From Flavobacteriales bacterium (lineage in GTDB: Bacteria; Bacteroidota; Bacteroidia; UBA10329): a stretch of 64,000 nucleotides of DNA. Location: positions 33,947 to 97,946 of the forward strand of contig JBIKWM010000008.1 of NCBI GenBank assembly GCA_044356305.1, read 5' to 3'. Position numbers and translations under genes: made by a program. Below the pieces are notes generated by a model that saw nothing but the letters and a program-made list of their open reading frames with translations, searched no databases and was not told where the DNA came from. Shown in pieces: positions 31,073 to 48,820 of the stretch. How positions within the stretch are numbered: the stretch's first letter is position 1; each line of letters opens with the position of its first letter.

Positions 31073-32701
31073 ATGACGCTACGAACCGGATCAGCGATCA
31101 TACTCCTCACTCTAGCGGCTATCGGTGCTCAGGCACAGGGCAACGCTGCATCTGAGGTGCTGGTACGCAAGTTCTACCCCACTGCTAACGAGCAGCTCAA
31201 GAACGGGCGCTACCCTGCTGCCGCTCAGAATTTTGCTCAGATGGTCGAATCGGACCCGAAGAATGCCAACCTGAACTATAAGGCCGGTATGAGTTATCTG
31301 GGCCTTCCAGGACAGAAAGATAAATCTGTTCCATATCTGGAATTTGCGGTCACCGACATCAACGAGAAGTACAAGGACTCGCCCAATGAGCGCAAGGCCC
31401 CGGTAGATGCCATTTACCAATTGGCCCGCGCTTATCACATCACATTCCAGTTCGATAAGGCCATTGAGCACTACCGTAAGTTTGCCAATGTGGCCAAAGT
31501 GACCGATCAGGCCCAGTTGGATGAGCTGAACCGTCAGCTCGAGATGTGTGAGAACGGCAAACTGATTGCCGAGACGCCCGTGAGCGCCACCATCAGAAAC
31601 CTCGGGATCAAGCTCAACACTAAGTTTGATGAGTATGCACCTGTGGTGGATGTGACCGAGAGCGTTATGATCTTCACTTCGCGTAGGCCCACAGGCACAG
31701 GCGGTTTTCAGGACCCGGACGGGGAGTATTACGAGGACATTTTCATCTCTGTGAAAGAAGATACGCTATGGGGCCTGCCCAAAAGCATCGGAGGCAAAGT
31801 GAACACTGACGGGCACGAGGCCAGCATAGGCCTGAGCCCTGATGGACAGGAGCTTTTCATATACAGGGATGATTATGGCGATGGGAATATCTACGCCAGT
31901 CAACTCATCAGTGGCGAGTGGCGGGTGCCCGTGCGCCTCGGAGAGGCTGTTAACAGCACCTACCGCGAGACTCACGCGTCCGTTTCGGCCGATGGTCAGA
32001 CCCTTTATTTCACCAGCGACCGCCCGGGCGGGCAGGGTGGCATGGACATTTGGCGGGCGCGCAGATTGCCCACGGGTGATTGGGCCAGAGCAGAGAATCT
32101 CGGGCCACGTGTGAATACCAGATTTGATGAGGAGGCCCCGTTCATCCACCCGGATGGAAAGACGCTCTTCTTTAGTTCGAAGGGACATACGAGCATGGGT
32201 GGATTCGACCTGATGTTCACCATTTCGGATGATGGTGGTGCTTGGTCGAGCCCAATGAACATGGGCGTGCCCCTCAATTCGGCCGATGACGACTACTTCT
32301 TTGTCATGTCTCCCGATGGTAAGCGCGCCTATTATTCCTCGAGCATGAAAGGTGGGCAAGGAGGCAAGGACCTCTACATGATTTACCTCGAACGCGAAGA
32401 GACTCCGCTCACTGTTTACAAAGGTGTTTTCAGTCCTGATGCAAGCGGGAATCTGCCACAGAACGCCTCGATATCTGTGACCGATAACAACACAGGAGAG
32501 CTGTATGGAACCTATCGGCCACGTGCCGATAACGGGCGCTTCATACTGGTGCTGAATCCGGGTAAGGACTACATGATCACATACGAGGCCGATGGATTTG
32601 CTTCGCGGTCGGAGAAGCTGTTCGTGCCTGAGAACACGGCCTATTTCGAGATAAACAGGGCCATTCAGATGAATCCGATCACCCTCGAGGGCGGGCGTTG
32701 A
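31073..32701 (+). CDS. secreted TPR + TolB-like PD40 beta-propeller protein (cluster paralogue 1, no OmpA domain)
   Basis: Signal peptide. TPR-like N-terminus. PD40 repeats (DGQELFIY, DGQTLYFTSDRPGGQGGMDIW, DGKTLFFSS). C-terminal beta-sandwich. Confidence 0.8.
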   Translation: MTLRTGSAIILLTLAAIGAQAQGNAASEVLVRKFYPTANEQLKNGRYPAAAQNFAQMVESDPKNANLNYKAGMSYLGLPGQKDKSVPYLEFAVTDINEKYKDSPNERKAPVDAIYQLARAYHITFQFDKAIEHYRKFANVAKVTDQAQLDELNRQLEMCENGKLIAETPVSATIRNLGIKLNTKFDEYAPVVDVTESVMIFTSRRPTGTGGFQDPDGEYYEDIFISVKEDTLWGLPKSIGGKVNTDGHEASIGLSPDGQELFIYRDDYGDGNIYASQLISGEWRVPVRLGEAVNSTYRETHASVSADGQTLYFTSDRPGGQGGMDIWRARRLPTGDWARAENLGPRVNTRFDEEAPFIHPDGKTLFFSSKGHTSMGGFDLMFTISDDGGAWSSPMNMGVPLNSADDDYFFVMSPDGKRAYYSSSMKGGQGGKDLYMIYLEREETPLTVYKGVFSPDASGNLPQNASISVTDNNTGELYGTYRPRADNGRFILVLNPGKDYMITYEADGFASRSEKLFVPENTAYFEINRAIQMNPITLEGGR

Positions 32702-32796
32702 TAACTGGGGGAAATTACCTTACCCCGTATCCTTAAAATAATATCTTTGGCGCGCTCCTAAAAAGGGGCCTCATCTTTTTTTCACCTGCGCGACCT

Positions 32797-35700
32797 ATGG
32801 AATTGACCTTGGGCAAGAATCTGAACGGCATGCGCTGCATACTTAGCCTTTCTTGCCTGATTATCGGCTTGCCTCTCTGGGTGTCTGGTCAGCCCTTCGG
32901 TTCCGGAGAGTTCAAGACCAAGTTCATGAAGGCCGATGCCATGATCTATGACGGCCGGCATGAACAGGCGTTGCCATTGGTGATGGATCTGATAGCCACC
33001 GATTCTTCCAATGCCAATCTGAGTTTCATGCTCGGATCCTGTTATCTGTTCACGAAGCAGTATTCAAAGGCACTTTATTATCTCGACAAGGCGGTGCGCG
33101 ATGTCTCCATCTCGCATCAGGAAGCCAACCCAAAGGAGCGGAAGGCGCCAGGCATGGCGTATTTCTACCTAGGCAAGGCGCACCATTTCATCAACGAGTT
33201 CGATCAGGCCATATCAAATCTGTACAATTACCGTTCGTTCATCGATATGAACGATTACGCTGCATACACTGAGGTAAAGCGTCATATTGAGTATTCTGAG
33301 AACGCTAAGGAATTGGTGGAGAATCCGGTCAAGACCGATATCAAGAATATTGGCCCGACACTTAATACCAACTATCCGGAGTTCTCGCCAGTCATTTCGG
33401 CCGATGGGCAGACCCTCATATTCACTTCTAGGCGCGAAGGGAGTACAGGTGGTAAGCTCGACCAGAACGGGAAGTTCTATGAGGACATCTATGTGAGCAA
33501 AAGAGAGGGCGAAGATTGGAGCAAGCCTCAGAGCATTGGTCGCAATATCAATACTGATGGTCATGAGGCGAGTATAGGACTTTCTCCAGATGGACAGACC
33601 CTTTTCATCTACAAGGACGACAATGGCGATGGCAACATCTATGAGAGTTCGCTGATCAATAACGAATGGTCAACCCCTCGTAAAGTGGGAGGAGATGTGA
33701 ATACAAAATCGTGGGAGACACACGCCACCATTTCGGCCCGTGGCGATATGATTGTTTTTACATCGAATCGCGATGGCGGACAGGGTAAGCGCGACATATG
33801 GTTCTGCAAGTTGTTGCCCAATGGTCAATGGGGAGTGGCCCAAAATATGGGGCCGCTGATCAACACCCTTTATGACGAAGATGCACCTTCGCTATCGGCC
33901 GATGGAAACACATTGGTCTTCAGCTCGCAAGGGCACAATTCGATGGGCGGATTTGATATTTTCCGTACAGAGTTCGTTGATGGTGCATGGACAGCCCCTG
34001 AGAATCTTGGCTACCCGATAAATACTGCCGAGGACGACATCTTTATGGTCACAACCCCTGATGGGCGGTATGCTTACTACAGCTCCCAGCGCGAAGGAGG
34101 GGCAGGTGAGACAGATCTGTATCGGGTGAAACTCGATGTAAAGCGTCCTTCACTGCTAACAGTTTTCCGTGGCCTTGTCATAGTGCCAAACATGGATTTT
34201 GCTGGCACCAAGGTGGTTATGGATGTGCAGGATCAGGCATCGGGCCTCAGCATGGGGCAATTCAGGCCGAACGCCACTACAGGAGCCTATGTGTTGATTC
34301 TTGAACCGGGCATGAGCTACCGGGTGACCTACAGTGCGAGTGGGTATGGACCTGTGCAGAAGACAATCATGTCTGATGACATGAGTGCCTATGAGGAGAT
34401 AATGAAGGCGGTCGATCTGGAGCCAGTGGTATTTGGAGGCGAGCTTGAGGCACAGCTGAAAATGAAGCAGGATCTGGAACGCGAAAGGGCCGCGAACGAG
34501 CGCCTTTTGGCAGAGGAGAATGCGCGTCTGCAGGCTGCGTTTGAGGCAGCACAGGCCCAGGCAAAGGCGAAAGAGGAGGAAGAAGCGCGCATCAAGGCCG
34601 ATGAGCAGGCAAGCGCTGAGGCTCTTGCCGCTGAGGAGGCCAGAAAGGCTGAGGAGGCCCTGAGAGCCACAGAGGCCAAGCAGCAGCAAGAGCAGGCGGC
34701 AGAAACAGAGCAGCCCCAGCAGACCGAACCCCAGCCTGAGATTCAGCCTGAGCCGATAGCCGAACAACCTGTTGCGGTGGCGCCTCAAGAGAATGATGCC
34801 TTAGCCAAGAAGCGTGCGGCTATTGAGGAGATGCGCAAGCGGATGGCTCAGCAGGCAGAGGACAATGCCCATAACGAGCCTACGGAGGTAACTACCAAGG
34901 AGATTACGCCTACAGAGCAGCCAGAGCCTCAAAAGTCAGAGCCTGTTGCTGCGGAGGAGCCAGTTGTCGTGCAAGAAGCTGCAGCGGAGCCTGAGAAACA
35001 GCCTGAGAAACAGCCTGAGTCGGCAGTAGTGAGCGAGCCGGTTGAACAACCAGAGCCAGAATCTACGCAGGTTTCTCAACAGGAGGAGGCACGGGTTACG
35101 GAGCCGGTTATGGAACAGCAGCCAGAAGAAGTGGCTGTGGCCGAACCTGTGCAGAACCAGAAGTCTGATGCAGAGCGTCAGTTGGAGGAGAAGCGAATCA
35201 AGCTTCAGAGGCAGATTGACGATCTGAGGCAGAAACAACTGGGCAAGTCGCAGGAGCTCCAGAACGCAGCCGATGAGGCCGCACGACTCAAAGCGGAATC
35301 GGATGCCAAGGCACGTGAAGTGGAGGAGGCTAAGGCAAAGGCTGCAGAGGCCGAGCGTCAAAGGCTAGCCATTGAAGCAGAGACCAAGAAAGAGGCAGAG
35401 GCTATAGCCAAGGCTGAACGTGAAGCTCAGGAAATAGTCAAGTTGGAGCAGAAAGCGCATGCCGAAGCAGAGGCTAAACGTCTAGCAGACGAGAAGGCAC
35501 GGGAAGAAGCCGAGGCCAGGAAGATTGCCGAAGAGGAAGCCCGCATCAAGGCTGAAATGGAGGCTCAGCGCAAGGCTGAAGAAGCTGCACGTAAGAAGGC
35601 TGAGGCTGAGGAGAAGGCCCGGATTGAACGCGAGCGGATGGAGCAGGTGCTTGCTGAGCAGAGAATCAAGAAAGAGGAGGAGGAGAAGAGGAAGGCTGTT

Positions 35701-36438
35701 CTTGCTGAAGAGCGCAAGAAAGCCGAGGCCGAACGTCAGGAGACCATCAGAATTGAAAAGGAGCAGGCTCGGATAAAGGCGGAGGCAGCAAAAGCAGAGG
35801 CCGAGGCGGAGGCAATTGCGAGGCGGAATTCAGCGATAGAGGCAGGCACCATAGCTGAACTCAGGAAGATCAATCAGAAGTTGATCGATGAGAATCGGGA
35901 TATCAAGAAGCAACTGGCTGACATCAACGCGAAGTTGGATATGATCATCAATATACTCTCAGCAGGCAAAGGGGATGAGACATTCAGTGAGGCGGACCTC
36001 ACCGAGCTCAGCAAAAAAGGGAAGTTGGTACTCAATAATATCTTCTTCGATTACAATCAGGCCAGTTTGCGCCCCGAATCAAAAAAGGAACTCAATAAGC
36101 TTGTCTCGTTCTTGAAAGGCAATCCGGATGTGGCCATTGTGATAGGTGGGCACACGGATTCGCGTGGTAACGATGAATACAACATGAACCTGTCCCAGGA
36201 GCGTTCTGAATCAGTGAGCTCTTATTTGGTGAGTAGCGGAATTGATGCAAGTAGGCTCTCTGCCCGTGGATATGGCGAATCGAAACCGATAGCAAGGAAC
36301 GAGAATGTTGATGGGACGGATAATCCAAAAGGTCGCCAGCTGAACAGGCGCATTGAAATAAGTATAGTGGGTGCCGGCATGGATGATGTGGAGGTGAAGA
36401 AGATCAAAGTCCCTTCAGAACTTAAAGTAGTTGATTGA
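32797..36438 (+). CDS. TPR + PD40 propeller + ~550-aa E/A/K/Q/P-rich spacer + C-terminal OmpA peptidoglycan-binding domain (paralogue 2)
   Basis: Same N-terminal module as 31073. OmpA-C signature ...GGHTDSRGNDEYNMNLSQERSESV...NRRIEI. Confidence 0.85.
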   Translation: MELTLGKNLNGMRCILSLSCLIIGLPLWVSGQPFGSGEFKTKFMKADAMIYDGRHEQALPLVMDLIATDSSNANLSFMLGSCYLFTKQYSKALYYLDKAVRDVSISHQEANPKERKAPGMAYFYLGKAHHFINEFDQAISNLYNYRSFIDMNDYAAYTEVKRHIEYSENAKELVENPVKTDIKNIGPTLNTNYPEFSPVISADGQTLIFTSRREGSTGGKLDQNGKFYEDIYVSKREGEDWSKPQSIGRNINTDGHEASIGLSPDGQTLFIYKDDNGDGNIYESSLINNEWSTPRKVGGDVNTKSWETHATISARGDMIVFTSNRDGGQGKRDIWFCKLLPNGQWGVAQNMGPLINTLYDEDAPSLSADGNTLVFSSQGHNSMGGFDIFRTEFVDGAWTAPENLGYPINTAEDDIFMVTTPDGRYAYYSSQREGGAGETDLYRVKLDVKRPSLLTVFRGLVIVPNMDFAGTKVVMDVQDQASGLSMGQFRPNATTGAYVLILEPGMSYRVTYSASGYGPVQKTIMSDDMSAYEEIMKAVDLEPVVFGGELEAQLKMKQDLERERAANERLLAEENARLQAAFEAAQAQAKAKEEEEARIKADEQASAEALAAEEARKAEEALRATEAKQQQEQAAETEQPQQTEPQPEIQPEPIAEQPVAVAPQENDALAKKRAAIEEMRKRMAQQAEDNAHNEPTEVTTKEITPTEQPEPQKSEPVAAEEPVVVQEAAAEPEKQPEKQPESAVVSEPVEQPEPESTQVSQQEEARVTEPVMEQQPEEVAVAEPVQNQKSDAERQLEEKRIKLQRQIDDLRQKQLGKSQELQNAADEAARLKAESDAKAREVEEAKAKAAEAERQRLAIEAETKKEAEAIAKAEREAQEIVKLEQKAHAEAEAKRLADEKAREEAEARKIAEEEARIKAEMEAQRKAEEAARKKAEAEEKARIERERMEQVLAEQRIKKEEEEKRKAVLAEERKKAEAERQETIRIEKEQARIKAEAAKAEAEAEAIARRNSAIEAGTIAELRKINQKLIDENRDIKKQLADINAKLDMIINILSAGKGDETFSEADLTELSKKGKLVLNNIFFDYNQASLRPESKKELNKLVSFLKGNPDVAIVIGGHTDSRGNDEYNMNLSQERSESVSSYLVSSGIDASRLSARGYGESKPIARNENVDGTDNPKGRQLNRRIEISIVGAGMDDVEVKKIKVPSELKVVD

Positions 36439-36457
36439 TAGGTCTTAAAGGGTCACA

Positions 36458-39400
36458 ATGATGATGAATCTACGTGTTTCCCTTATCGGCCCCATTTTTA
36501 ATCTATTTTCATCCGCTTTTTCAGGATCGATGAAAGACCGTACCGGACGGTCAGAATCAATGCTTCAACCTCGACTGACGTTTAGCTTTTTCGTATTGAC
36601 CGCCCTCATGCTTGCCATGACCGGGCAGGGGTATGCGCAATCGCGGGATATCCGTCAGACCACTGAGGAGGAGATGAACCGCGAGATTAACCAGACCCCT
36701 GAGGAACGCGCAAAGGCACGTATCAGAGTCACCCCTAAAACCGCACAGGAGCTATACTATAACGGCAATTTCAGAGCAGCACTTGATGAGTTTCTGATCC
36801 TTTTGGCTAAGAATCCCACCGACCCCGACCTCAATTTCTTTATCGGTGCATGTTATCTGGAGAGCAACATTGATAAGAAAAAGGCCGTCCAATATCTTGA
36901 GTTCTCTGTATCACAGCCTAAGTATCCGAAAGAAGCCATCTATCAATTGGGTAGAGCTTACATGTTCTCTCATCGCTTTGATGAGGCCATCACAACTTTC
37001 AACAAGTACAAGGACATTCAACGCGGGAAGGAGGACAATATAATAACCGGGACACGGATGATTGAGATGTGCTTCACAGCCAAAGAACTTGTGAAGTACC
37101 CACGTGATGTGACGTTTGAGAACCTTGGCATAAACATCAATTCAGCCTATCCTGAGTACAATCCATTTATTCCGGAGGATGAGTCTTTCATTGTATTCAC
37201 AACTAAACGTCCGGATTGTTTGGGTCTACAATTGGATTATGATGGTTATAAGACTCCTGATATTTATCGTGCAAGAACTACTCGTGGTAGATTTTCCGAG
37301 GCGCGGAACATAGGTTCCTCGGTCAATACGGAATGGTATGAGGAGTGCGTTGGTCTATCAGCTGATGGTCAGGAACTGCTTGTTTACATCGACAATTTCG
37401 ATGGGTACGATGATATCTACAACTCGCCCCGCAAGGGCCGATTCTTTGATGAGTACTATTCTCTCGGGCCGAACATCAACACCGATGAAATAGAGACCAC
37501 AGCGAGTATGAGCACAGATGGTCAGCTGCTATTCCTGACCCGCGAAGTGGGTAAGGGAGTAACAGGGACTGATATTTATATGTCGCGCAAGCTGCCCAAT
37601 GGTACCTGGGCCATTCCGACACGTTTGCCAGATGTGATCAATACCAAGTACAATGAGGCGTTCCCGCACCTTGCCGATGACGGTAAGACACTGTACTTCG
37701 CATCTGAAGGCCACATGAGCATGGGTGGCTTCGATATTTTCACCACCGAGTATGATGAACTGACCGGCACTTGGTCAGTACCACGTAATGTCGGTTATCC
37801 GATCAATACGGTGGATGATGATTTTAATATCTCAATGTCCACCACTGGGCGCTATGGCTATGTCTCTCAGTTCAGGGAAGAGGGGTATGGCGAGCGGGAT
37901 ATCTATATGGTGACTTTTAAGGACACCGACCCGGTAGAGACCATTGTTCGAGGTTCAATCACCAATATAAGAGATTCGCTTAAGAATGATCCGAGATATG
38001 AGGTAGGCAATTTCCTTATGACCGTGCGTAACATGGACACCGATGAGTTCATCGGTTATTACCGACCTAATAAAGGCAGCAGCAATTATGCTCAAGTACT
38101 TGATCCCGGTGAATATTGCGTTTACGTTGAAGGGGAGTCTTTCTTTGACACATCTGCCGTTATTGAGGTTCTTGGGCGTGATGCACAGGTACGTGAACAG
38201 ATTTTTGACTACACACTGAGACCTGATCCTAATGCCAAGCGCAAGGGTAAGGAAAGCAAATGCCAGATTTATGCATTGAGTGGAAGTGTTGATGGCATGG
38301 CCAAACTGTGGGAAGTACCGAGTGGCCGACTTATCCTTAATCTGGATAACCGGAAGGAGGTTTCATCGGTTCAATTCTCGCCCAATGGGAAATATGCTGC
38401 AGCCAGTTGCAATGATGGTAGCATCAACCTATGGAACCTACCTGATGGCACGCCTAGCAAGACATTGTATGGTCACAAAGGACGTGTGAACCGGGTCGTA
38501 TTCACACCGAACAGCCGCTACATCCTGTCATGCGGAGCCGATTCCACGGTGCGCTCTTTCGATATCGCGACAGGTAAGCAGACGAATCTTTACATTGGCC
38601 ATGTGGGCAATGTGAACGATGTGACTGTTTCGTCTGACGGCAATTACCTCATTACGGTATCAGACGATGGGAACGTATTGATGTGGGACTTCAAGTCCAC
38701 TGAACTTGTCGGGGTTTATGATGGGCATTCAGGACCGGTTCGTAGCGCCATGTACTCGCCCTGTGGCAATTTCATCGTAACCGGTGGCAGCGATGGAAAA
38801 GCAATAGTGTGGAACATCACCACTGCCAAACCCGAGACCATCTTCTCATTACATGGCACAGATGTTACTTCGGTTCGAGTGTCGCCCGACTGTAGCACCA
38901 TTGTGTCAACCGACCGCAAGGGATTCACCTATTCCTGGGACAGGAAGCTGGGTAGTGTAAAGAACGCCATGCCGAGCAATCAGGCCGTGGCATCGTCATT
39001 TATCAGCAAAGACTCGCGCTACATTATCACCGGAGGCAAGGAGCGGGACCCGCGCGTGTGGGCTTTCGGCAATGGTGATCAGGTAACCACCCTGTTCGGC
39101 CATAAGGGTTATGTCAATGATGTGGCATTCTCTCCTTGCATCAAGTTCCCCGAAAAGGAAATTCCCGACATCAAACCTGCCGACCCAAAGGAGGTACAGG
39201 CACTCGAGGCGGAGGTTCAGAAGCTTGAGGAGGAACTGGCCAAGATGGAACAACTCAAAAAGCTCGGTTACGACCCCAGCCTCTTGGATGTTGACATCAA
39301 GAACACGAAGAAATTCAAGGTGGGCGATAAGATCATTCTTGAACGTATCTACTTTGATTTCGATAAGTTCAATATCCGCGATGAGTCTGTTGTGCAGCTC

Positions 39401-39718
39401 AATCAGTTGCTGCTGTTCCTTACCAACCAGCCGACTGTGATTGTAGAGATATCGGGCCACACCGATTCGCGCGGCACTGACGACTATAATGAAAAGCTCT
39501 CCCGCAACCGTGCAAAGAGTGTCGTTGCATGGTTGGGCGAACGGGGAATCCCGAGCAAAAGAACTGTGGCCAAGGGATATGGAGAACGAAAGCATATTGC
39601 ACCTAACGAAAATCCAGATGGGTCGGATAATCCTGAAGGCCGTCAGATGAACCGAAGGATAGAACTCACCATCATTGGGGTCGCGGGCGAGAAGATCATC
39701 ACAACCGAAAACAACTGA
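36458..39718 (+). CDS. TPR + PD40 propeller + 7-blade WD40 propeller + coiled coil + OmpA domain (paralogue 3)
   Basis: Likely true start ATG 36560 (MLQPRLTFSFFVLTALMLAMTGQGYAQ). WD40 repeats (LWNLPDG..., ...SCGADSTVRSFD, ...VSDDGNVLMWDF). OmpA-C ...SGHTDSRGTDDYNEKLSRNRAKSV...NRRIEL. Confidence 0.85.
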   Translation: MMMNLRVSLIGPIFNLFSSAFSGSMKDRTGRSESMLQPRLTFSFFVLTALMLAMTGQGYAQSRDIRQTTEEEMNREINQTPEERAKARIRVTPKTAQELYYNGNFRAALDEFLILLAKNPTDPDLNFFIGACYLESNIDKKKAVQYLEFSVSQPKYPKEAIYQLGRAYMFSHRFDEAITTFNKYKDIQRGKEDNIITGTRMIEMCFTAKELVKYPRDVTFENLGININSAYPEYNPFIPEDESFIVFTTKRPDCLGLQLDYDGYKTPDIYRARTTRGRFSEARNIGSSVNTEWYEECVGLSADGQELLVYIDNFDGYDDIYNSPRKGRFFDEYYSLGPNINTDEIETTASMSTDGQLLFLTREVGKGVTGTDIYMSRKLPNGTWAIPTRLPDVINTKYNEAFPHLADDGKTLYFASEGHMSMGGFDIFTTEYDELTGTWSVPRNVGYPINTVDDDFNISMSTTGRYGYVSQFREEGYGERDIYMVTFKDTDPVETIVRGSITNIRDSLKNDPRYEVGNFLMTVRNMDTDEFIGYYRPNKGSSNYAQVLDPGEYCVYVEGESFFDTSAVIEVLGRDAQVREQIFDYTLRPDPNAKRKGKESKCQIYALSGSVDGMAKLWEVPSGRLILNLDNRKEVSSVQFSPNGKYAAASCNDGSINLWNLPDGTPSKTLYGHKGRVNRVVFTPNSRYILSCGADSTVRSFDIATGKQTNLYIGHVGNVNDVTVSSDGNYLITVSDDGNVLMWDFKSTELVGVYDGHSGPVRSAMYSPCGNFIVTGGSDGKAIVWNITTAKPETIFSLHGTDVTSVRVSPDCSTIVSTDRKGFTYSWDRKLGSVKNAMPSNQAVASSFISKDSRYIITGGKERDPRVWAFGNGDQVTTLFGHKGYVNDVAFSPCIKFPEKEIPDIKPADPKEVQALEAEVQKLEEELAKMEQLKKLGYDPSLLDVDIKNTKKFKVGDKIILERIYFDFDKFNIRDESVVQLNQLLLFLTNQPTVIVEISGHTDSRGTDDYNEKLSRNRAKSVVAWLGERGIPSKRTVAKGYGERKHIAPNENPDGSDNPEGRQMNRRIELTIIGVAGEKIITTENN

Positions 39719-39723
39719 CAACC

Positions 39724-42700
39724 ATGCGCAGCACCGGCATAGGGCGAGTGTCAGCACATTTATTGGGCATAGCACTCCTTGGCTTCATTTCGTTTATTGC
39801 CCCACAAGTAGCATCAGCCCAGCCTGTTGTAGGAGAGGAGCGGCAGAGTGTGTCGAATATTCAAGGCCCCATTGAGATCAAGTGCTTCGTTAAGGAGCTC
39901 ATGAACACTATGAAAGGGGTGATTGTCACCATTTATGAAGATGCTGATGGATCGCGTACCAAACTGAATGAACTCCAGAAAATAGTCACCCCAGGCAATG
40001 GCCAGTTCACATTCAAGTTGAACATCAACAGGCTGTACATGATAGAGTACAGCAAACCGGGCTACACTTCGAAGAAGGTGGACTTTGATACCGATGTGAA
40101 GATGGCACGGCCTGAACATACCAAAGTGCCAACATTTGAATTTGAGGTGCAGATGGTAAAAGATCTTGATGGTCTGGCTTTTAAGAGTTCGGTGGCCAAG
40201 GTCTTCTATCACATCAAGCGAAATGAACTGGACTATGAGCTTGATTACTCCAAAGAGGAAATGTTGGAGGAAGAGCGCAAGATCAAGGAGTTAGAAGAGA
40301 AAAGGCGATTGGCTGAAATAGCTGCCCAGAAGAAGCTGGAGGTGGAGAATCAGGCCCTCTCAGCACGTGAAAAGGACCGGTTGGCGGCTGAGTCAAAGAT
40401 TAAGGCGGCCGTGCTGATGGGCTCAGACGAAAAGAAGGTGAAGGAGCAGTTGGTGAAAGTTTTCTCTGATGTCGATTCGCTGCGCTACAAAAAGGCCGAT
40501 GCCATGTATTTGGAGCTGCAGAAGGAGCGCCAGCGCACCGGTGGCAACAACGCAGCCATTAACTATGGCAGCATTTTCGATGCGGCTGTAAGGCTAGAGG
40601 ATAAGGTTGTGGCTGATAAGGCCGCAGCCGATGCCAAGAAGCAGGAGGAACTCAGGAAAGTAAAGACCGATGTGGTGCAGAAACAGCAGGAGGCTATCCA
40701 AAAGGAACAAGAGGCCCAGAAGCTGATAATGCAGAACAAGCTGGCACAGGCCACTGCTGCCGAGGATGCAAGGAGGGCGGCTGAGGAAAAGGCCAAGCGC
40801 GAAAGCGTGTACAATGCATTGCTCAATTCAAGCGGGAGCAAGGAAAAAGCCATTGCCAACCTGATGACGGTGTTCGCCAAGGGCGATGAATACAAGGAAG
40901 AGAAGGCCGAGGCCATGTACATGGCCTATGAGAAGGCCAGGCAAGGGGGCAAGACCTTGGCGAACATGAACTACAGCGACCTTTTCTCGGCAGCGCGTCA
41001 GGCCGAGGATGCGGCTGTAGAGAAAAAGTTGGAAGAGGAGCGCAGAAAGGGCAATGACAAGACCAACGAGATAATCAAATCGTTGGATGAGAAGAAATTA
41101 AAGGAGGAATCTGCCCAGAAAACAAAGATTGAGGCCGCACTTGCCATAGCCAAGAACGAGACCGAAAGAAAACAGGCCTTTATTGAGGCATTGCCAAAGA
41201 ACGACCCTTACCGTCAGCAGAAGGGCGAGGCCATGTATGCTGAATTCCAGAAGCAGCAGCAGGCTCTGAACACTGGTGGCTCGGCCAAAACGGGGATTGA
41301 CTTCGGTTCAATTTTCGGAGCAGCCGAGACTGCTGAGCTTACCATCAAGAACAAGGAAAAAGAGGAATTGGCCCAGGCAAAGCGCCAACAGCAGGATGCT
41401 ATAGAGTCAAAGCTCGAGACCGTGCGTTCCGAAAAGAGCAAGATGGCCCAGGAAGCCGCAACGGTTGCCCAGGATGTACAGAAACAGAAACTGGGCGAGG
41501 CTGCAAACGCCAAGGAGAAGAAGTTGGCTGATGCAATAGGTAAGGCTGAGGGCGACCGATCAAAGGCCATTCAGTCCATCATGTCGACATTTGAGAAAGG
41601 GACTGAGTACAAGCAGGAACGTGCCGAAGCCATCTATGACGCCTATCTTGCTGAAATAGTGCGGATAAAGAACTCAGGGAACACCACGACCAAAATCGAT
41701 TTCGGTAAGCTGTTCGGTGCAGCTGACAAAGCTGAACTGGAGGCAATAACCAAGCAGTATGAAGCCAAGAAGGCCGAAGAGGACCAGAGGTTGGCCAATT
41801 ACACGGCCCAGCGGACAGAGAAGGCCGTAGATCTGGCGCAGGTCAAGGCCAAGGAAGCTGAGGAGAAGGCCGCCACTGCCGCTGCGGATCTTGCCAAGAC
41901 CAAATCGGACCTTGAGAATGAACGCATCAAGCGCGATCTGGCGCTCATGAAGCAGAAGGAACAGGAGGAGAAGACCTTGGCGATGGAGGAAGCCAAGAGG
42001 GCTGCAGAACTGAGGGAACGCGAACAGGCCTCTATGTCTCAATCTGAAAAGGACAAATTAGCCGCTGCCGAGAAACTTAGAAAGGAGACCGAAGCTGCAA
42101 GGGCAAAGCTTGAGGCTGAAGAAAGACGCAAAGCGGAAATCGCACAGGCGGCAGAGGAGAAACAGCGACAGGCAGACCTTGCACTGCAATCGAAGGCCGA
42201 AAAGGAACGTCAGGCTGCTATGGACGCTCAGAAGAAGGAAGAGGAGAGACTACGTAAAGAGAAGGAACTGGCGGACGCCAAGGCCAAAGCGGAAGAGTCG
42301 AAGCGATTGGAGGCCGAGCGTGCTGAAGCTGAGAAGAAGCGTCAGGCAGAGATGGCTGCCGCAGAGCGAAAGAAGGCCGAGGAACTGGCCGCAGCCCAGA
42401 AGGCAGAACGCGAGAGGTTGCTTGCTGCCGAACAGGCTGAGAAGGACCGGTTGGCAGCTGAGAATGCTCAGCGCACAGCTGCTGAAAAGGCAGAAAAGGA
42501 CCGGATTGCAGCCGCGGAGCGCAAAAAGGCTGAGGAATTGGCCGCAGCCCAGAAGGCAGAACGCGAAAGGTTGCTTGCTGCCGAACTTGCCGAAAAGGAG
42601 AGGATTGCGGCTGAGAATGCGAAAAAGGCTGCTGAGGAGAAGGCTGAGAAAGACCGACTTGCTGCCGAGGCCGCCAAGAAAGCGGCAGACGAGAAGGCCG

Positions 42701-43890
42701 AACGTGACCGCATACTTGCGGCTGAAAAGGCTGAGAAGGACCGTATAGCAAAAGAAGCGGCTGACCAGAAGGAGCGTGAACGCCTTGCATTGGAGGAGAA
42801 GAAGAAGGCGGAGGCCGATCAGATTGCAAAGGCGGCCGAAGAGAAGCGCAGACTTGACGAACAGTTCCGTTCACTTATTCAGGCCGGTGACCTGGCTTTC
42901 ACGGCCAAGAACTATAGCAAGGCAAAGGACGATTATGCCAAGGCTGCGGCACTCAAACCCGATGACCGCGAACTGAAGAGCAAGATCGGCTCGACAGATG
43001 CCGAGTTGAACAAACTGGCCATTGCCGATGCAGCTGCCAAGGAGAAAGAGCAGAAATTTCAGAATCTGTTGAAAGAGGGTGATGAGCAGATGGCCGATGG
43101 CGAGTACCCATTCGCGCGCAACACCTATTTCAAGGCTCAAGAGATGAAGCCCAATGACCCTTCGGTGCGGGCAAAGATCAAACAGGCTGATGATGCCATT
43201 GCCGCGGCCACCAAGGCCCGCGAGGCAGAACAGGCCAAGGAACGTCAGTACATTGTGCTGATGCAGGACGGTGGAAAGGCCATGGACTCCCGAGACTATG
43301 TCACGGCCAAGAAGAAATACAACGATGCCCTGGCTCTGAAACCTGGATCGGCCGATGCGACCAAGAAGTTGAGCGACATCAAAGTCATAGAAGATCAGAT
43401 GGCTGCCGCGACCAAGGCAGAGGATGAGAAGAAGCGTCAGGCGCAGGAGGCATTTGCTCAGAAGCAGAAAGAGGAGGAGGAGCGTAAGGCTGCCATTGCC
43501 CTTGAACGTCAGAAGGCCCTTGGCGATATTACAAATGGCAATGCGCAGACCCAGCCTGCCGCAGGTGGTGCCCCGAGCTCGGCCGAGCAGGAGCGCCAGC
43601 GCAAGTTTGAGGCACTCAAGCTGCAGATTGAGGACATGAGCAGCAATGCTGATGAACGCAGGAGGATGTTCCTCTCAGAACTTGCCAAGCTTTATCCAGA
43701 GGGTGTCACCTATGAGGCGGTTCCCGGTTCGAACTACAAGTTGGACCGGTATGTGATAAACAACAAAGGCGTGGTGAACGTGTACGAGAAACGTACATGG
43801 GACTGGGGCGGTGTGTTCTACTTCAAGGACAACGGAGTGGCCATCACCGAGTCGCTCTACAACCTGGAGCTGAACCGATACAAGAAGTGA
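39724..43890 (+). CDS. giant secreted coiled-coil protein (E/K/A-rich, ~1000 aa helical) with N-terminal beta-sandwich and C-terminal TPR-like repeats
   Basis: Signal peptide. Four ~65-aa modules (...F.KG.EYK.EKAEAMY...). 51-aa tandem repeat AAERKKAEELAAAQKAERERLLAAE... x2. TPR-like KAKDDYAKAAALKPDD. Confidence 0.75.
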   Translation: MRSTGIGRVSAHLLGIALLGFISFIAPQVASAQPVVGEERQSVSNIQGPIEIKCFVKELMNTMKGVIVTIYEDADGSRTKLNELQKIVTPGNGQFTFKLNINRLYMIEYSKPGYTSKKVDFDTDVKMARPEHTKVPTFEFEVQMVKDLDGLAFKSSVAKVFYHIKRNELDYELDYSKEEMLEEERKIKELEEKRRLAEIAAQKKLEVENQALSAREKDRLAAESKIKAAVLMGSDEKKVKEQLVKVFSDVDSLRYKKADAMYLELQKERQRTGGNNAAINYGSIFDAAVRLEDKVVADKAAADAKKQEELRKVKTDVVQKQQEAIQKEQEAQKLIMQNKLAQATAAEDARRAAEEKAKRESVYNALLNSSGSKEKAIANLMTVFAKGDEYKEEKAEAMYMAYEKARQGGKTLANMNYSDLFSAARQAEDAAVEKKLEEERRKGNDKTNEIIKSLDEKKLKEESAQKTKIEAALAIAKNETERKQAFIEALPKNDPYRQQKGEAMYAEFQKQQQALNTGGSAKTGIDFGSIFGAAETAELTIKNKEKEELAQAKRQQQDAIESKLETVRSEKSKMAQEAATVAQDVQKQKLGEAANAKEKKLADAIGKAEGDRSKAIQSIMSTFEKGTEYKQERAEAIYDAYLAEIVRIKNSGNTTTKIDFGKLFGAADKAELEAITKQYEAKKAEEDQRLANYTAQRTEKAVDLAQVKAKEAEEKAATAAADLAKTKSDLENERIKRDLALMKQKEQEEKTLAMEEAKRAAELREREQASMSQSEKDKLAAAEKLRKETEAARAKLEAEERRKAEIAQAAEEKQRQADLALQSKAEKERQAAMDAQKKEEERLRKEKELADAKAKAEESKRLEAERAEAEKKRQAEMAAAERKKAEELAAAQKAERERLLAAEQAEKDRLAAENAQRTAAEKAEKDRIAAAERKKAEELAAAQKAERERLLAAELAEKERIAAENAKKAAEEKAEKDRLAAEAAKKAADEKAERDRILAAEKAEKDRIAKEAADQKERERLALEEKKKAEADQIAKAAEEKRRLDEQFRSLIQAGDLAFTAKNYSKAKDDYAKAAALKPDDRELKSKIGSTDAELNKLAIADAAAKEKEQKFQNLLKEGDEQMADGEYPFARNTYFKAQEMKPNDPSVRAKIKQADDAIAAATKAREAEQAKERQYIVLMQDGGKAMDSRDYVTAKKKYNDALALKPGSADATKKLSDIKVIEDQMAAATKAEDEKKRQAQEAFAQKQKEEEERKAAIALERQKALGDITNGNAQTQPAAGGAPSSAEQERQRKFEALKLQIEDMSSNADERRRMFLSELAKLYPEGVTYEAVPGSNYKLDRYVINNKGVVNVYEKRTWDWGGVFYFKDNGVAITESLYNLELNRYKK

Positions 43891-43916
43891 TTGCCACGTA
43901 CTGCTGACAACCTGCG

Positions 43917-45842
43917 ATGCATCTGAGGTCGATACCACTCCTTTTCGTTTTCCTCAACATCACTGCCATAGCTTTCGGTCAAGCAGCCGATGATGGTGTG
44001 AAGGGCGCCACGCCACAGGCATTGGCCAAGAACTATTTTGAGATAGGTGACTATCGCAATGCGCTGAAGGAGTATCAGAAGCTGGTGGCCGAGAAACCCG
44101 AGGACCTTTTCTACAACTACCGCGTAGGTCTGTGCCACCTCAACCAGAACATTGACAAGAGCTGGAGCCTGCCCTATCTCCGCAAAGTGGTGGCCGATGC
44201 CAACAGCGACCCGGAGGCATTGTATGATATGGGCCGTGCCTTCATGTACAACGAGCAGTTGGACAGCGCTATCCTATTCTTCAACAAGTACAAGGGAAAG
44301 GTGAAGGATGGTGCGCGCCTGGTGGAGGCCACACGCAACGTGGAGTTCTGCACCCAGGCCAAGAAGCTGATGGAGAAACCGCTCAATGTGAGTTTCTACA
44401 ATCTTGGCAAGGACATCAACAGTGAGGGGCCAGAGTTCAATGCCTTTATCCCTGACGATGAGAGTTTCATTGTCTATTCTACCAAGCGCGACAAAGGGGT
44501 GATGGGCAACAACCTCGACTTTGACGGTTATAAGCCGGCAGACGTGTTCTGGGCCAAAGCCAAGGGAGGTGAGTTTGACAAGGCCAAAAGTGTGGGTGCC
44601 ACCATCAACACCGAATGGGTGGAGGAGATCACCGGCCTATCGGCCAATGGCGAGTACATGTTTCTTGCCATCGATAATGCAGAGGCCTATGATGATGTGT
44701 GGGTGACGGAGTTCAACGGGCGGCAATGGAGCAAGACCATCCCTTTCGGGCCTACCATCAACACCCAGGACCCCGAACTGGCCGCTTCGAGCTCGCCCGA
44801 TGCGCAGGTGCTGTACTTCTCGCGCCAGAGCTCGGCTGTTGAGGGTTTCGGTGGGTTGGACATCTACATGGCCAAGAAGCTGCCCAATGGCCATTGGAGC
44901 ACGGCCGTGAACCTGGGCCCTACCGTTAACACGCAGTACGATGACTCGTACCCACAGGTGTCGGCCGATGGGCGCACCCTCTACTTCAGCAGCATGGGTC
45001 ACAACAGCATGGGTGGCTACGATGTGTTCAAGAGCGAGTGGGACGATAAGTATCAGCGCTGGGGAAGGGCCGACAACATCGGGTATCCGCTCAACAACAC
45101 GATGGACAATTTCACCTTCTCGCGCACCGGAAACATGCGCTACGCCTATGTGGCGCAGTTGCGCAAAGGCGGGCTCGGTGACCTCGACATCTATCGTGTC
45201 ACATTCAACGACATCCCGAAGGAGATGACCGTTCTGGTAGGCAATATTGAGCTGTACAACTCTCCCAACAAACGAACCATCAACCTGCATACCTATACCA
45301 AAGACGGTCAGGTGAAGGTTTTCACCGATGAGTATCAGCCCACCGATGACCCCACTTGGACCTACAAGGAGACCAAGAAGGAGGCCATTAAGGATGGCGA
45401 GAAATATGAGATAACCATCATCGGGTCGTACAAGGGGCAGGTGCAGAAATTCACCCCCGAGAATTTCCCGAAGGATGTGGCGAACTTCAAATGGGTGGAT
45501 ACGCGCATCAGCAAGGTGAAGGTGCCCGTGGTGCCCACCAAGATTGAACCGGTGCCCTACAAGGGCATGAAGGAGCCCATCATCAGCATTGTGATAAAGG
45601 ACTATGCGGGCAAGACGGTGGGCAAGTACACCGCCAATCGCAGGTTGGGCCGTTTTGTCGCCTCGCTCGAGCCATCGGACCACGGGCTGTACACCGTCAC
45701 GATGTCGGCACCGGGCTACGAGACCACCGAGGAGAAGGTGAGTGTGGTGGGCATGGGCCAGTATAAGACCGAGATAAAGAAGACTTTCAAGCTGGTAGAG
45801 AAGGGCCTAACACTGCCCGCACCGGCCACCGCCCCCAAATGA
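43917..45842 (+). CDS. secreted TPR + PD40 propeller protein with C-terminal beta-sandwich domains (paralogue 4)
   Basis: Signal peptide MHLRSIPLLFVFLNITAIAFGQ. Same module order as 31073. Confidence 0.8.
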   Translation: MHLRSIPLLFVFLNITAIAFGQAADDGVKGATPQALAKNYFEIGDYRNALKEYQKLVAEKPEDLFYNYRVGLCHLNQNIDKSWSLPYLRKVVADANSDPEALYDMGRAFMYNEQLDSAILFFNKYKGKVKDGARLVEATRNVEFCTQAKKLMEKPLNVSFYNLGKDINSEGPEFNAFIPDDESFIVYSTKRDKGVMGNNLDFDGYKPADVFWAKAKGGEFDKAKSVGATINTEWVEEITGLSANGEYMFLAIDNAEAYDDVWVTEFNGRQWSKTIPFGPTINTQDPELAASSSPDAQVLYFSRQSSAVEGFGGLDIYMAKKLPNGHWSTAVNLGPTVNTQYDDSYPQVSADGRTLYFSSMGHNSMGGYDVFKSEWDDKYQRWGRADNIGYPLNNTMDNFTFSRTGNMRYAYVAQLRKGGLGDLDIYRVTFNDIPKEMTVLVGNIELYNSPNKRTINLHTYTKDGQVKVFTDEYQPTDDPTWTYKETKKEAIKDGEKYEITIIGSYKGQVQKFTPENFPKDVANFKWVDTRISKVKVPVVPTKIEPVPYKGMKEPIISIVIKDYAGKTVGKYTANRRLGRFVASLEPSDHGLYTVTMSAPGYETTEEKVSVVGMGQYKTEIKKTFKLVEKGLTLPAPATAPK

Positions 45843-46612
45843 AGCTGAACCTGACGAGGCCGTTGGCCTTTTTTGATCTGGAGACCACTGGCACTCAGGT
45901 GGCTGAGGACCGTATAGTGGAGATTTCCATACTCAAGGTGCACCCCGATGGCCGCGAGGAGGTGCGCACGCATCTGGTCAACCCCACCGTTCCCATACCG
46001 AAAGGAGCTACTGAAGTGCATGGCATAACGGACGATAAGGTGGCCAATGCGCCCACGTTTGCCCAACTGGCCGCTGAGCTGAAACAGTTTCTGAGCGACT
46101 GCGACCTGGGCGGGTTCAATTCCAACCGCTTTGACATACCCCTGCTGGTAGAGGAGTTTTACCGTGCCGGGGTGGAGTTTGAAATGAAAGGCCGCAGGAC
46201 CGTGGATGCGCAGGTGATATTTCACCGCATGGAGGAGCGCACACTGGGTGCCGCCATGAAATTCTACTGCGGCCGCGAGCTGGAAGGGGCCCACAGTGCC
46301 GAGGCCGACATACGTGCCACCTACGAGGTGCTAAAGGCCCAACTGGACCGATATGCTGAACTTAGGAACGATGTGGCCGAGCTGCACGAGTTCTCATCGC
46401 GCGGCAACAAGTTTGTGGACTTTGCGGGCCATGTGGTTCGCGATGCCGAGGGCACCGAGGTGTTCAATTTCGGAAAGCACAAGGGCCGCGCTGTGGCCGA
46501 GGTGTTTGCCAAAGAACCCTCGTACTATGCATGGATGATGGACTCGCAGTTCCCGCATTACACCAAGAAAGTGATAACCGAGATACGGCTGCGCGCACAG
46601 CAACAGGCATGA
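45839..46612 (+). CDS. DEDDh 3'-5' exonuclease (DnaQ/epsilon-like)
   Basis: Exo I FFDLETTG; Exo II FNSNRFDIPLL; Exo III HSAEADIRATYEVL. ATGA overlaps at both ends. Confidence 0.85.
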   Translation: MKLNLTRPLAFFDLETTGTQVAEDRIVEISILKVHPDGREEVRTHLVNPTVPIPKGATEVHGITDDKVANAPTFAQLAAELKQFLSDCDLGGFNSNRFDIPLLVEEFYRAGVEFEMKGRRTVDAQVIFHRMEERTLGAAMKFYCGRELEGAHSAEADIRATYEVLKAQLDRYAELRNDVAELHEFSSRGNKFVDFAGHVVRDAEGTEVFNFGKHKGRAVAEVFAKEPSYYAWMMDSQFPHYTKKVITEIRLRAQQQA

Positions 46613-47363: not shown

Positions 47364-48335
47364 CTACTCCCTTTGCACCACAAGTTTACGCACTGCCACG
47401 GCACCGTTCTCAAACTGTGCTCGCACCATGTACACCCCAATGTTAAGGCCACTTACATCTATCTCCCGCACCGCACCGCCATGGCTTTGCAGATCCCGCC
47501 CGCTCAGGTCATTTATGGCCACTGTGTTTATTCGCCTGTTGCTATTGTGGCTTATGGCCACAGTTGTTGTGGCGGGGTTGGGGTAGATATCAAAGCCATA
47601 CATTTCGCTGTCTTTGACACCGTTGGGTAGTTCTATACGCCTGACGGAAACATCGTCAATAAAGTAATATGCAATTCCAGAAATTATACTTGTGTCGTTG
47701 ATAACATCTGTATCCTCATCCGTACTAAAATTCCCGATGGTTAAAAAAGATTCAGCCCCACTGGCAACGTACAGTGCATCAAAATTATACCATAAACCAG
47801 ATTCCTGCATAAATTCAATTCCTGGCCCAATTATTTGAGGTGCCACAGGCAAGAGAGGAAAGCTGCCAGTATCGGAATAAACTGGTTGTGAAGAAAAATG
47901 CATACCGATGGATTTAATGGCAGGTGCAACGTTACATGACTTTGAAATATGCATTTTAACCCTATAAGTACATCCATAAATTAAGGTTTCCTTTAGTTTA
48001 TTCGAAACATATTCTCGGCCATTTCCTGACCGTGAATAAACAATGAGACCAATCATGCCATCACCTGAATTGGTCATGTTAACGTTACAATCCATTGCCG
48101 GAATACCCACATATGGATTCATTTCATTTGCACATAAATTAAAATAATCCGGAGTGCCAGTTGTTGGGTTGTACCAATGTAACAATTTATCCACTTCACT
48201 AGGTACAAAAGGAGGACTAATTTGAGTTGGACATTCATAATACTCCTCAAATCCACCATTAGGGACAAGATTGGGTTCTTGCGAAAACCCTTTATCCGCG
48301 GCCAACAATAGACCAATAATTATTATTGCTCTCAT
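47364..48335 (-). CDS. T9SS cargo protein, CBM4/9-like N-terminal domain, type-A CTD (duplicate copy 1)
   Basis: Signal peptide. QEPNLVPNGGFEEY start typical of CBM_4_9. C-terminal ...YPNPATTTVAISHNSNRRINTV...GVYMVRAQFENG. Confidence 0.75.
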   Translation of the reverse strand: MRAIIIIGLLLAADKGFSQEPNLVPNGGFEEYYECPTQISPPFVPSEVDKLLHWYNPTTGTPDYFNLCANEMNPYVGIPAMDCNVNMTNSGDGMIGLIVYSRSGNGREYVSNKLKETLIYGCTYRVKMHISKSCNVAPAIKSIGMHFSSQPVYSDTGSFPLLPVAPQIIGPGIEFMQESGLWYNFDALYVASGAESFLTIGNFSTDEDTDVINDTSIISGIAYYFIDDVSVRRIELPNGVKDSEMYGFDIYPNPATTTVAISHNSNRRINTVAINDLSGRDLQSHGGAVREIDVSGLNIGVYMVRAQFENGAVAVRKLVVQRE

Positions 48336-48820
48336 GGTGCCAAAATAAACTTACTCGTGATTCCTGAGATTTGAATAAAGTAAACCCCACCAGCAAAGCC
48401 GTTAAGTTCTAACTTAGTTTGGCCACAATTTAGAATATTACGCTCTATAACGTGACCTAAGGGATTAGTGATCACATATTCAAACTTCTCTTCTGATACG
48501 CAACCTTCAACTCCGACCCATACGTGACGAGTAGTTGGGTTAGGATATACTATGACCTTAATGGACGATTCATCATCGTCAGTCACAGGAACTAAGTCGT
48601 CTTGTCCTCTTCTTTCAGAAGGTGGTTCTGTCAATAACTCACATTCATTGATCCATTCCCTATGCACCAATGTATCACGAGCAGAAAGTACTGCCCTTGC
48701 CAGATAAACTGAACTTCCTGAATCAAGCGGGCAAGCCGATGCCAAGGATTCGAGCCATGGCAGATCGACACTGTCGGGCATGGTGTTCTCTGACCAATGT
48801 GTGATGTTATAGGCCATCAT
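48332..48820 (-). CDS. CTD-only ORF (T9SS sorting domain without signal peptide); possible gene fragment
   Basis: C-terminal ...VIVYPNPTTRHVWV...GGVYFIQI. No N-terminal signal. 4-nt overlap with the downstream cargo gene. Confidence 0.5.
   Translation of the reverse strand: MMAYNITHWSENTMPDSVDLPWLESLASACPLDSGSSVYLARAVLSARDTLVHREWINECELLTEPPSERRGQDDLVPVTDDDESSIKVIVYPNPTTRHVWVGVEGCVSEEKFEYVITNPLGHVIERNILNCGQTKLELNGFAGGVYFIQISGITSKFILAP

Follow-up and report, generated by a model that had tools for sequence, protein, structure and literature searches.

A conserved five-gene array of PorE-like propeller proteins and a fibrous partner in Flavobacteriales as a candidate periplasmic scaffold

A stretch of 64,000 nucleotides (nt) of contig JBIKWM010000008.1 from a Flavobacteriales bacterium (assembly GCA_044356305.1; hereafter the window, 64 kb in length) contains five open reading frames (ORFs) on the plus strand, named g1 to g5, at positions 31073-45842. 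Four of them (g1, g2, g3, and g5) are classed here with the PorE/CHU_0125 superfamily, and g4 encodes a secreted fibrous protein. We propose, with a probability of about 0.45, that the products form one peptidoglycan-anchored periplasmic scaffold working like PorE or CHU_0125 and that the genes represent a vertically inherited cluster. All five proteins are predicted to be exported, two of them carry intact motifs expected to bind peptidoglycan, and the linkage of the genes is conserved in related genomes.

Domain architecture of the array proteins

The ORF table gave the following genes:

31073-32701, plus strand, g1, 542 amino acids (aa)
32797-36438, plus strand, g2, 1213 aa
36458-39718, plus strand, g3, 1086 aa
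39724-43890, plus strand, g4, 1388 aa
43917-45842, plus strand, g5, 641 aa

An earlier note on this DNA had described five co-oriented, tightly spaced genes, in agreement with these ORFs. The gaps from g1 to g5 are 95, 19, 5, and 26 nt and are followed by an overlap of 4 nt with an exonuclease gene; among the spacings listed earlier, only the first (96 nt) had to be corrected. All five proteins start with signals for signal peptidase I (SPI) ending in A/G|Q. [quoted passage not shown] Genes at 47364-49945 match T9SS CTD models, so these models do work in this genome. Domain searches of the five array proteins did not suggest an outer-membrane barrel.

The products of g1, g2, g3, and g5 have a module in common, in which a signal peptide and TPR precede a PD40 propeller and, last, a carboxypeptidase-regulatory domain (CRD). 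The first three parts had been recognized in the earlier note and the CRD had been overlooked. The Pfam PD40 scores were 92.5 bits for g1, 113 for g2, 43 for g3, and 34 for g5, all above the gathering cut-off of 20.9 bits, which confirms a TolB-like propeller in four of the five genes. TPR matches of g1 and g5 were sub-threshold and CarboxypepD_reg matches were weak in Pfam. The TolB model touched the propeller blades alone (27 bits versus a cut-off of 343) and the Pal model covered the OmpA_C part alone, below its cut-off; neither the TolB N-terminal domain nor TolA domain III was detected in the array proteins with Pfam and NCBIfam.

Two curated NCBIfam models matched all four propeller proteins. 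NF053607 (CHU_0125 family OmpA-like outer membrane integrity protein) gave 176-299 bits (g1 214, g2 299, g5 176), and NF052230 (PorE family T9SS protein) gave 189 bits for g1, 268 for g2, 224 for g3, and 133 for g5. The alignments span model positions ~22-500 of ~640 (22-493 for g1). The CHU_0125 model outscored the PorE model in each case and is thus the best curated family; nevertheless, every score is less than half of the curated cut-offs of 620 bits (NF053607) and 600 bits (NF052230). Furthermore, orthologues of g3 lacking the WD40 insertion described below align end to end with the CHU_0125 model at only 241-288 bits and reach 218-246 bits with the PorE model. The possibility that g3 is the true PorE or CHU_0125 orthologue of this lineage was ruled out, since its canonical-length orthologues also stay below half of both cut-offs. 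Because the scores are this low even in WD40-less g3 orthologues, g1, g2, g3, and g5 are, as judged from these matches, members of the PorE/CHU_0125 superfamily and equivalogs of neither protein.

PorE consists of TPR, a propeller, a CRD, and OmpA_C (PMC7192894, PMC12773672). In print it has been described as a CpoB-TolB-CRD-Pal fusion that putatively tethers the outer membrane of Bacteroidota to peptidoglycan (PMC12204202). The fusion of a TolB-like propeller to a Pal-like domain, which had been pointed out in the earlier note, is therefore present in the array, but corresponds to the already published PorE/CHU_0125 architecture and is not new. The complete four-domain layout is found in deeper-clade g3 orthologues (745 aa); g2 and g3 of the window show it with large insertions, and g1 and g5 lack OmpA_C. 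Inspection of orthologues of g1, g2, g3, and g5 for a lipobox revealed SPI-type signals ending in A/G|Q throughout, with two sporadic and unconserved lipobox-like strings.

The individual propeller proteins differ in what is added to the module. The g1 product is PorE-like without an OmpA domain; so is that of g5, which has an insert of ~100 aa between propeller and CRD. In g2 a spacer of 520 aa separates CRD and OmpA_C, and in g3 a WD40 propeller is inserted. The additional features are as follows:

34432-35991, plus strand, g2 spacer (aa 546-1065), from the composition profile
35992-36435, plus strand, g2 OmpA_C domain (Pfam OmpA 79.5 bits; 6top E 4e-22)
38258-39172, plus strand, g3 WD40 propeller (residues ~600-905) between CRD and OmpA_C (Pfam WD40 150 bits)
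39293-39715, plus strand, g3 OmpA_C domain (Pfam OmpA 64 bits; PorE 6top E 3e-18)

Hence, two proteins end in OmpA_C and one gene contains a full WD40 propeller, as the earlier note had stated. The WD40 segment also matches many other beta-propeller families in Pfam. The solved PorE C-terminal domain, 6top, is the closest structure to both OmpA_C domains. In the g2 motif TDSRGNDEYN, the Asp and Asn lie eight residues apart and correspond to D576 and N584 of PorE, and HTDSRGTDDYN of g3 aligns with HADRKGPDAYN of PorE (6top), so that the peptidoglycan-binding Asp and Asn are retained. PorE function depends on Asp576 and Asn584 (PMC12773672). Binding of peptidoglycan is predicted for the OmpA_C domains of both array proteins.

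The g2 spacer begins with a short helical stretch, followed by ~150 aa rich in acidic residues, Pro, Glu, and Gln, and ~250 aa rich in Glu, Lys, Arg, and Ala. It is 46-60% charged, with ~30% Ala and 8-18% bulky hydrophobic residues; the helical part is free of Pro. The ~250-aa stretch is probably helical, judging by its composition, and the Pro/Glu-rich stretch is TonB-like. Purine skew is strong in the DNA of this spacer. When judged against the N-termini of orthologues, the real start of g3 is likely the internal Met35 at 36560, in front of the signal peptide. The GC content of the g3 region (window 36001-40000) is 47-50%, lower than elsewhere in the array and the window (52-60%), though g3 is the most conserved paralogue with a mean within-group identity of 72%.

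The g4 protein had no Pfam and no NCBIfam match. It is a secreted fibrous protein and belongs to the core of the array, for which g4 serves as marker gene. Its full-length homologues number about 70; they all come from uncultured Flavobacteriales/Bacteroidia, and none has a functional name, except for one 'YaiE' label of the Joint Genome Institute (JGI). Their signal peptides are cleavable, of SPI type with an A/G|Q end, and variable in sequence. Features of g4, with structure predictions by AlphaFold2 (AF2) and their predicted local distance difference test (pLDDT) values, are:

39826-40278, plus strand, N-terminal domain, transthyretin-like/CRD fold with beta extension
40366-41763, plus strand, four divergent repeats of ~80 aa, KxEAMYxxY...G...I(D/N)FGxxFxAAxxAE
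41821-42993, plus strand, Glu/Lys/Arg/Ala-rich region of ~300-390 aa, from composition
42351-42667, plus strand, 153-nt (51-aa) tandem duplication in the charged region (Tandem Repeats Finder; 2.1 copies, 79% identity)
43006-43503, plus strand, three TPR-like helical hairpins with long helices between them (AF2 pLDDT >94)
43660-43887, plus strand, C-terminal domain with five strands and one helix in ~65-75 aa, TWDWGGVFYFKD motif (AF2 pLDDT 83-91)

The earlier note had called g4 the central gene and its product mostly coiled-coil. It is in fact the fourth of five genes, and the protein also has folded N- and C-terminal domains, four repeats, and TPR-like hairpins, while the charged helix contains only ~10% bulky hydrophobic residues. 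The CRD fold is the sole domain which g4 has in common with the other array proteins. The repeats, which we assume to be helical, are 21-35% identical with eight invariant columns in a self-alignment, and they are kept across the g4 family. The charged region is composed of 48-60% charged residues and 26-32% Ala, with a net charge of ~0; a single alpha-helix or a rod like TolA domain II fits this composition better than a classical coiled coil would. Members of the g4 cluster are tagged 'colicin import membrane protein' by JGI, which is probably a compositional match. The 153-nt tandem duplication shows how spacer lengths change. Additionally, two tandem secreted proteins of ~160-220 aa (9848-11018 in locus L029 and 9908-11010 in L030) consist of the CRD-like domain of the g4 N-terminus plus a short helix; they are located away from the array in array-carrying genomes.

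A reading of g4 as a TolA/TonB-like anchored transducer was rejected: the N-terminus is a variable SPI signal peptide in the ~70 homologues, and the N-terminal His/Leu/Ser pattern of the window copy is not conserved among them.

The g4 C-terminal domain is strongly conserved in the homologues with the pattern YPxGVTEE...WxWGGxFYFKNGxxIT, and it had no sequence match in Pfam, NCBIfam, or PDB. It was detected in 1273 clusters (50% identity) at E <= 1e-3 and in 565 at E <= 1e-10; in the best 150 of the 1273 clusters, mostly large TPR proteins of 1-2.3 kaa, its position is the extreme C-terminus or close to it. Proteins P0128-P0268 belong to this observation. By these sequence matches the domain appears as an uncatalogued domain family.

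Conservation, phylogeny, and surroundings of the array

Related loci were collected by look-ups of g4 homologues and one scan of 185,579 species-representative genomes; exact look-ups of the g4 of the window and of protein P0001 returned no recorded contig. About 27 distinct loci were obtained, all from metagenome-assembled genomes (MAGs) labelled Flavobacteriales, Bacteroidia, or Bacteroidota, save a few obviously mislabelled bins. Synteny was determined by BLASTP of domain pieces from the window against all ORFs of these loci. Gene order and orientation were identical across the loci: g2, g3, and g4 are contiguous and co-oriented in every locus with enough sequence, g5 follows g4 directly in all loci but L028, and g1 precedes g2 in 14 of the 19 loci with enough upstream sequence. 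Thus, g2 and g3 are core members like g4, g5 is near-core, and g1 is accessory. In L028, two short unrelated ORFs replace g5 (14348-16000), and a tblastn search found no g5 remnant there. The genes are co-conserved as an array in relatives and are not scattered there, so that the refuting condition set in the earlier note does not apply.

Most loci retain the gene of a 2-oxoacid dehydrogenase E2 component on the 5' side and the genes for the exonuclease and an FAA hydrolase on the 3' side. In L003, L008, and L012 other genes are located upstream of the array, and both flanks are different in L028 and in L004, a 4.43-Mb chromosome of which L023 is a duplicate. As g2, g3, and g4 are contiguous in these loci too, the core of the array survives rearrangement. 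In L004 and L028 the exonuclease gene does not adjoin the array; it is a syntenic neighbour and not an array component.

A neighbour-joining (NJ) tree of 83 N-terminal modules placed g1, g2, g3, and g5 each in a monophyletic group, with (g1,g2) and (g3,g5) as sister pairs. Mean identities were 60-72% within and 33-45% between the paralogue groups. Since each paralogue forms a monophyletic orthologue group, the duplications predate the lineage, with every copy retained and one-to-one orthology. A recent duplication in situ, for which the earlier note had suggested a phylogeny of the N-terminal module, is excluded by this tree.

Sixteen loci, which make up a single subclade, have the WD40 insertion of g3; nine loci lack it and represent eight distinct genomes, as L023 equals L004. 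Without it, g3 has 740-762 aa and canonical PorE architecture. As the WD40-less loci form the more divergent group (g4 identity ~33% versus 35-47% in the others), the insertion is read as derived; alternatively, WD40 may have been lost in the divergent group. Long spacers are present throughout, with 472-888 aa in g2 orthologues and 419-994 aa in the middle region of g4 orthologues. The two lengths correlate (Spearman 0.59 with p = 0.013 for n = 17, no phylogenetic correction applied), which is to be taken as a hint only.

Proteins with the g4 N- and C-terminal domains also occur outside arrays. No array was found around the distant g4-like proteins P0074, P0083, P0086, P0090, and P0099, which are encoded by stand-alone genes; only the P0099 locus has PD40-OmpA genes, 5-8 kb away. 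In L031, L032, L036, and the P0099 locus a giant g4-like TPR gene is located directly 3' of a divergent FAD oxidoreductase gene (PF01266 DAO), and on two Fluviicola-like contigs a distant g4-like gene lies upstream of a Mur ligase gene.

The region next to the array in the window includes:

32742-32783, plus strand, g1-g2 intergenic signals: TATCTTTG, a perfect Bacteroidetes -7-type promoter motif, then a GC hairpin and T-run
45839-46612, RNase_T/ExoX exonuclease gene adjoining the 3' end of g5

The array is probably an operon. Both the tiny gaps from g2 to g5 (5-26 nt) and the ATGA by which g5 overlaps the exonuclease gene fit co-transcription. The g1-g2 signals might serve as a promoter within the array or terminate transcription in part. 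They hint that g1 is separable, consistent with its absence in some relatives; across the window, the counts of -7-type and of hairpin/T-run motifs are no higher than chance and the evidence is accordingly weak. Scans of sigma-70 promoters and terminators gave no excess over shuffled sequence, with a model that is ill-suited to Bacteroidota promoters. No tRNA or Rfam matches were found in the window.

The 5' flank consists of a GT2 glycosyltransferase gene and the E2 gene, and beyond the exonuclease gene the 3' flank comprises the FAA hydrolase gene and genes of three small proteins with T9SS sorting domains. T9SS cargo genes across the window place the organism in Bacteroidota. In the window as in all related loci, no PorP/SprF-like, type-B-CTD, or gld/spr gene was found inside the array or next to it. 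The window as a whole has no PorP/SprF-like gene either, and the window and related loci were likewise free of MotA/ExbB/TolQ and ExbD/TolR genes.

Some further observations were made in the window. Three adjacent minus-strand genes at 47364-49945 encode proteins of 323, 162, and 361 aa, each with a terminal Por_Secre_tail and no other recognized domain, in a patch of 42% GC. Further T9SS cargo genes are located at 665-2236, 13566-15320 (SprB repeats and DUF7619), and 22867-24261. The stretch 6000-12700 has a GC content of ~50% versus 58-61% around it and looks foreign or mobile; it contains a gene (6701-8911) whose product joins a C-5 cytosine DNA methylase to an Arm DNA-binding domain, a Pro-rich low-complexity stretch with a GC skew of -0.28 (10437-10766), and a PIN-domain gene (12044-12649). 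The mfd gene (TRCF) lies at 55361-58723 on the minus strand, ~10 kb 3' of the array; in L004 it is found at 1-2826, ~1 kb upstream of the array with one CBS-domain gene between. This placement points to an ancient linkage in the region, altered by later rearrangement.

Possible functions of the array

In the proposed scaffold, the four distinct TPR/propeller/CRD heads would find docking partners in outer-membrane proteins or in one another. In PorE this head is the part in contact with the outer-membrane partner PorP, and the PorE propeller has been implicated in PorP binding (PMC12773672). The assembly would be fixed to the wall by g2 and g3 via OmpA_C, whereas g1 and g5, which lack an anchor, might act as adaptors or caps. 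Long rod-like, flexible, or elastic links could be supplied by g4 and the g2 spacer (470-890 aa). According to our estimate, a single helix of 250-300 residues spans ~35-45 nm, beyond the distance from wall to outer membrane; this length and the variability of the spacers would fit lateral or slack tethers and not a perpendicular ruler. The length-graded tethers imagined in the earlier note find no support: a peptidoglycan anchor is present in just two of the five proteins, and the spacers vary by hundreds of residues between species. By analogy, the physiological role is most likely outer-membrane attachment or integrity, as for CHU_0125, or the pinning of an outer-membrane machine to the wall, as for PorE.

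Several points weigh against this proposal. The residence of g4 in the periplasm is deduced from its sequence, and its C-terminal domain is positioned in the best-matching clusters as sorting signals are. Helicity of the spacers is predicted from composition; their lengths differ by 400-575 residues among species, counter to a fixed-distance role, and the covariation between g2 and g4 may reflect phylogenetic inertia. No partner gene, neither a PorP/SprF-like barrel nor a TolQR/ExbBD motor, is present in or adjoining the array in any locus. Finally, all array-carrying genomes are MAGs, and an order conserved in a fairly narrow lineage could partly result from vertical inheritance instead of selection.

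Among the alternatives, a role as T9SS or gliding accessory deserves most attention, and we regard it as clearly less probable than the scaffold. The four PorE-like proteins would pin PorP/SprF-type barrels, and hence secretion or adhesin complexes, to the wall, with g4 as a fibrous linker. The match of the PorE model to all four proteins (133-268 bits) speaks for such a function, as does the T9SS of the host, whose presence is judged from the numerous cargo genes with Por_Secre_tail along the window; moreover, six porE-like genes of Flavobacterium johnsoniae adjoin porP-like genes (PMC9143113). However, the array and all related loci are without the PorP/SprF-like, type-B-CTD, and gld/spr genes mentioned above, the PorE scores do not reach half of the cut-off of that model and are surpassed by those of CHU_0125, and the array proteins are not lipoproteins. 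A bolder form of the scaffold proposal, which we consider doubtful, is an unrecognized multi-protein periplasmic fibre made of four specialized PorE-type heads, two wall anchors, and the ~1400-aa rod g4 with its new repeat and new C-terminal domain. In this Flavobacteriales lineage, such a fibre would either have taken over the coupling of outer membrane and wall that Tol-Pal provides in Proteobacteria or would form a lateral periplasmic lattice or track for outer-membrane machines. The array might also replace Tol-Pal in constriction or tethering of the outer membrane at the division site, with g4 and the g2 spacer in place of TolA domain II and the heads in place of CpoB and TolB. PorE was indeed proposed as a CpoB-TolB-Pal fusion in Bacteroidota without recognizable tol-pal loci (PMC12204202), the charged Ala-rich helices are TolA-domain-II-like in composition, members of the g4 cluster carry the JGI colicin import label, and g2 has its TonB-like Pro/Glu-rich stretch. 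This replacement is nevertheless unlikely: TolQ/TolR/ExbBD motor genes are not nearby, g4 starts with a cleavable signal peptide instead of a conserved membrane anchor and its N-terminal His is not conserved, the TolB N-terminal domain and TolA domain III were not detected, and the TolA label is probably compositional.

A little less probable again is the absence of any joint function, with independent paralogues remaining adjacent merely by vertical inheritance in a narrow lineage. The carriers are all related MAGs, and most loci also retain unrelated neighbours (the genes for the E2 acyltransferase, the exonuclease, and the FAA hydrolase); yet the core persists where flanks were replaced (L003, L004, L028), paralogues with only 33-45% identity keep the same order, orientation, and very short gaps, and the product of every gene is exported and draws on a common set of domains. 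Least probable of all appears an export of g4 past the periplasm, in which an unrecognized signal for sorting or anchoring would reside in its C-terminal domain, with the PorE-like proteins serving to anchor it or to assist its export or display, as with type B CTD cargo encoded next to porP/porE-like genes. The terminal position of this domain in the 150 best clusters, mostly large TPR proteins, and its lack of a match to known domains are compatible with this idea, and genes for cargo, porP-like, and porE-like proteins are grouped in known genomes (PMC9143113). On the other hand, NCBIfam revealed no likeness to type A or type B CTDs, the terminal helix in the AF2 model is unlike the CTD beta-sandwiches, no barrel gene is adjacent, and distant carriers of the domain are not located beside PorE-like genes, the nearest PD40-OmpA genes of the P0099 locus being 5-8 kb off.

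Significance and comparison with known systems

The array touches the question of how Bacteroidota couple the outer membrane to the cell wall. A survey found no tol-pal loci or pal genes in Bacteroidota, and fusions of the PorE/CHU_0125 type were proposed for this role (PMC12204202). Diversification of the PorE architecture has led to at least four paralogues, ancient and non-redundant, and a whole lineage maintains them side by side with a fibrous partner dedicated to them, which suggests that PorE-type proteins can serve as parts of a larger assembly and not just as single tethers. The building block was already known from PorE and CHU_0125; the conserved g1-g5 array appears to be new. In agreement with the earlier note, no paper on the array was found in the literature, in a search limited by the confusion of PorE with 'pore-like'. 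The g4 family and its C-terminal domain are uncharacterized by-products that are worth cataloguing. As all carriers are metagenome-assembled, experiments will need heterologous expression or a newly cultured host.

PorE of Porphyromonas gingivalis (PG1058/PGN_1296; NF052230) bridges peptidoglycan and PorP (PMC9143113). The array resembles it partly in the order of TPR, propeller, CRD, and OmpA_C, which the WD40-less g3 orthologues match end to end and g2 and g3 of the window with large insertions, in the homology of the g2 and g3 OmpA_C domains to 6top with the binding Asp and Asn, and in a periplasmic location, which is predicted for the array proteins. In contrast to the array proteins, which score 133-268 bits against the cut-off of 600 and have no lipoprotein signal, PorE is a lipoprotein. 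Furthermore, the array differs by the lack of a porP-like neighbour, by the lack of OmpA_C in g1 and g5, by the 520-aa spacer of g2 and the WD40 propeller of g3, and by its composition of four paralogues in fixed order plus a fifth, unrelated fibrous protein.

CHU_0125, the 'Pal' homologue of Cytophaga hutchinsonii (NF053607), has the same TPR-PD40-OmpA_C layout and is the best curated match at 176-299 bits, which is less than half of its cut-off of 620 bits. It is a single gene for which neither an array nor a fibrous partner has been described. Deletion of chu_0125, whose phenotype is known from C. hutchinsonii only, led to a leaky outer membrane and sixfold more vesicles (PMC5891637); by analogy, this phenotype in outer-membrane integrity and vesicle release indicates the likeliest kind of role for the array.

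With Tol-Pal (TolQRA, TolB, Pal, and CpoB), of which PorE was proposed to be a compact analogue (PMC12204202), the array has fold parallels in its CpoB-like TPR, TolB-like PD40, and Pal-like OmpA_C, and its long charged Ala-rich helices resemble TolA domain II. Motor genes, a membrane-anchored transducer such as TolA with its SHLS motif, the TolB N-domain, and TolA domain III are missing, and the array domains are fused in single polypeptides, whereas Pal is a small lipoprotein. F. johnsoniae has several PorE copies (PMC12204202), and its porP-like/porE-like/type-B-CTD clusters resemble the array in the presence of multiple PorE-like paralogues per genome, each in a conserved neighbourhood. 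There, a single porE-like gene is accompanied by genes for a porP/sprF-like barrel and for cargo; the array combines four PorE-like genes without a barrel and without recognizable cargo.

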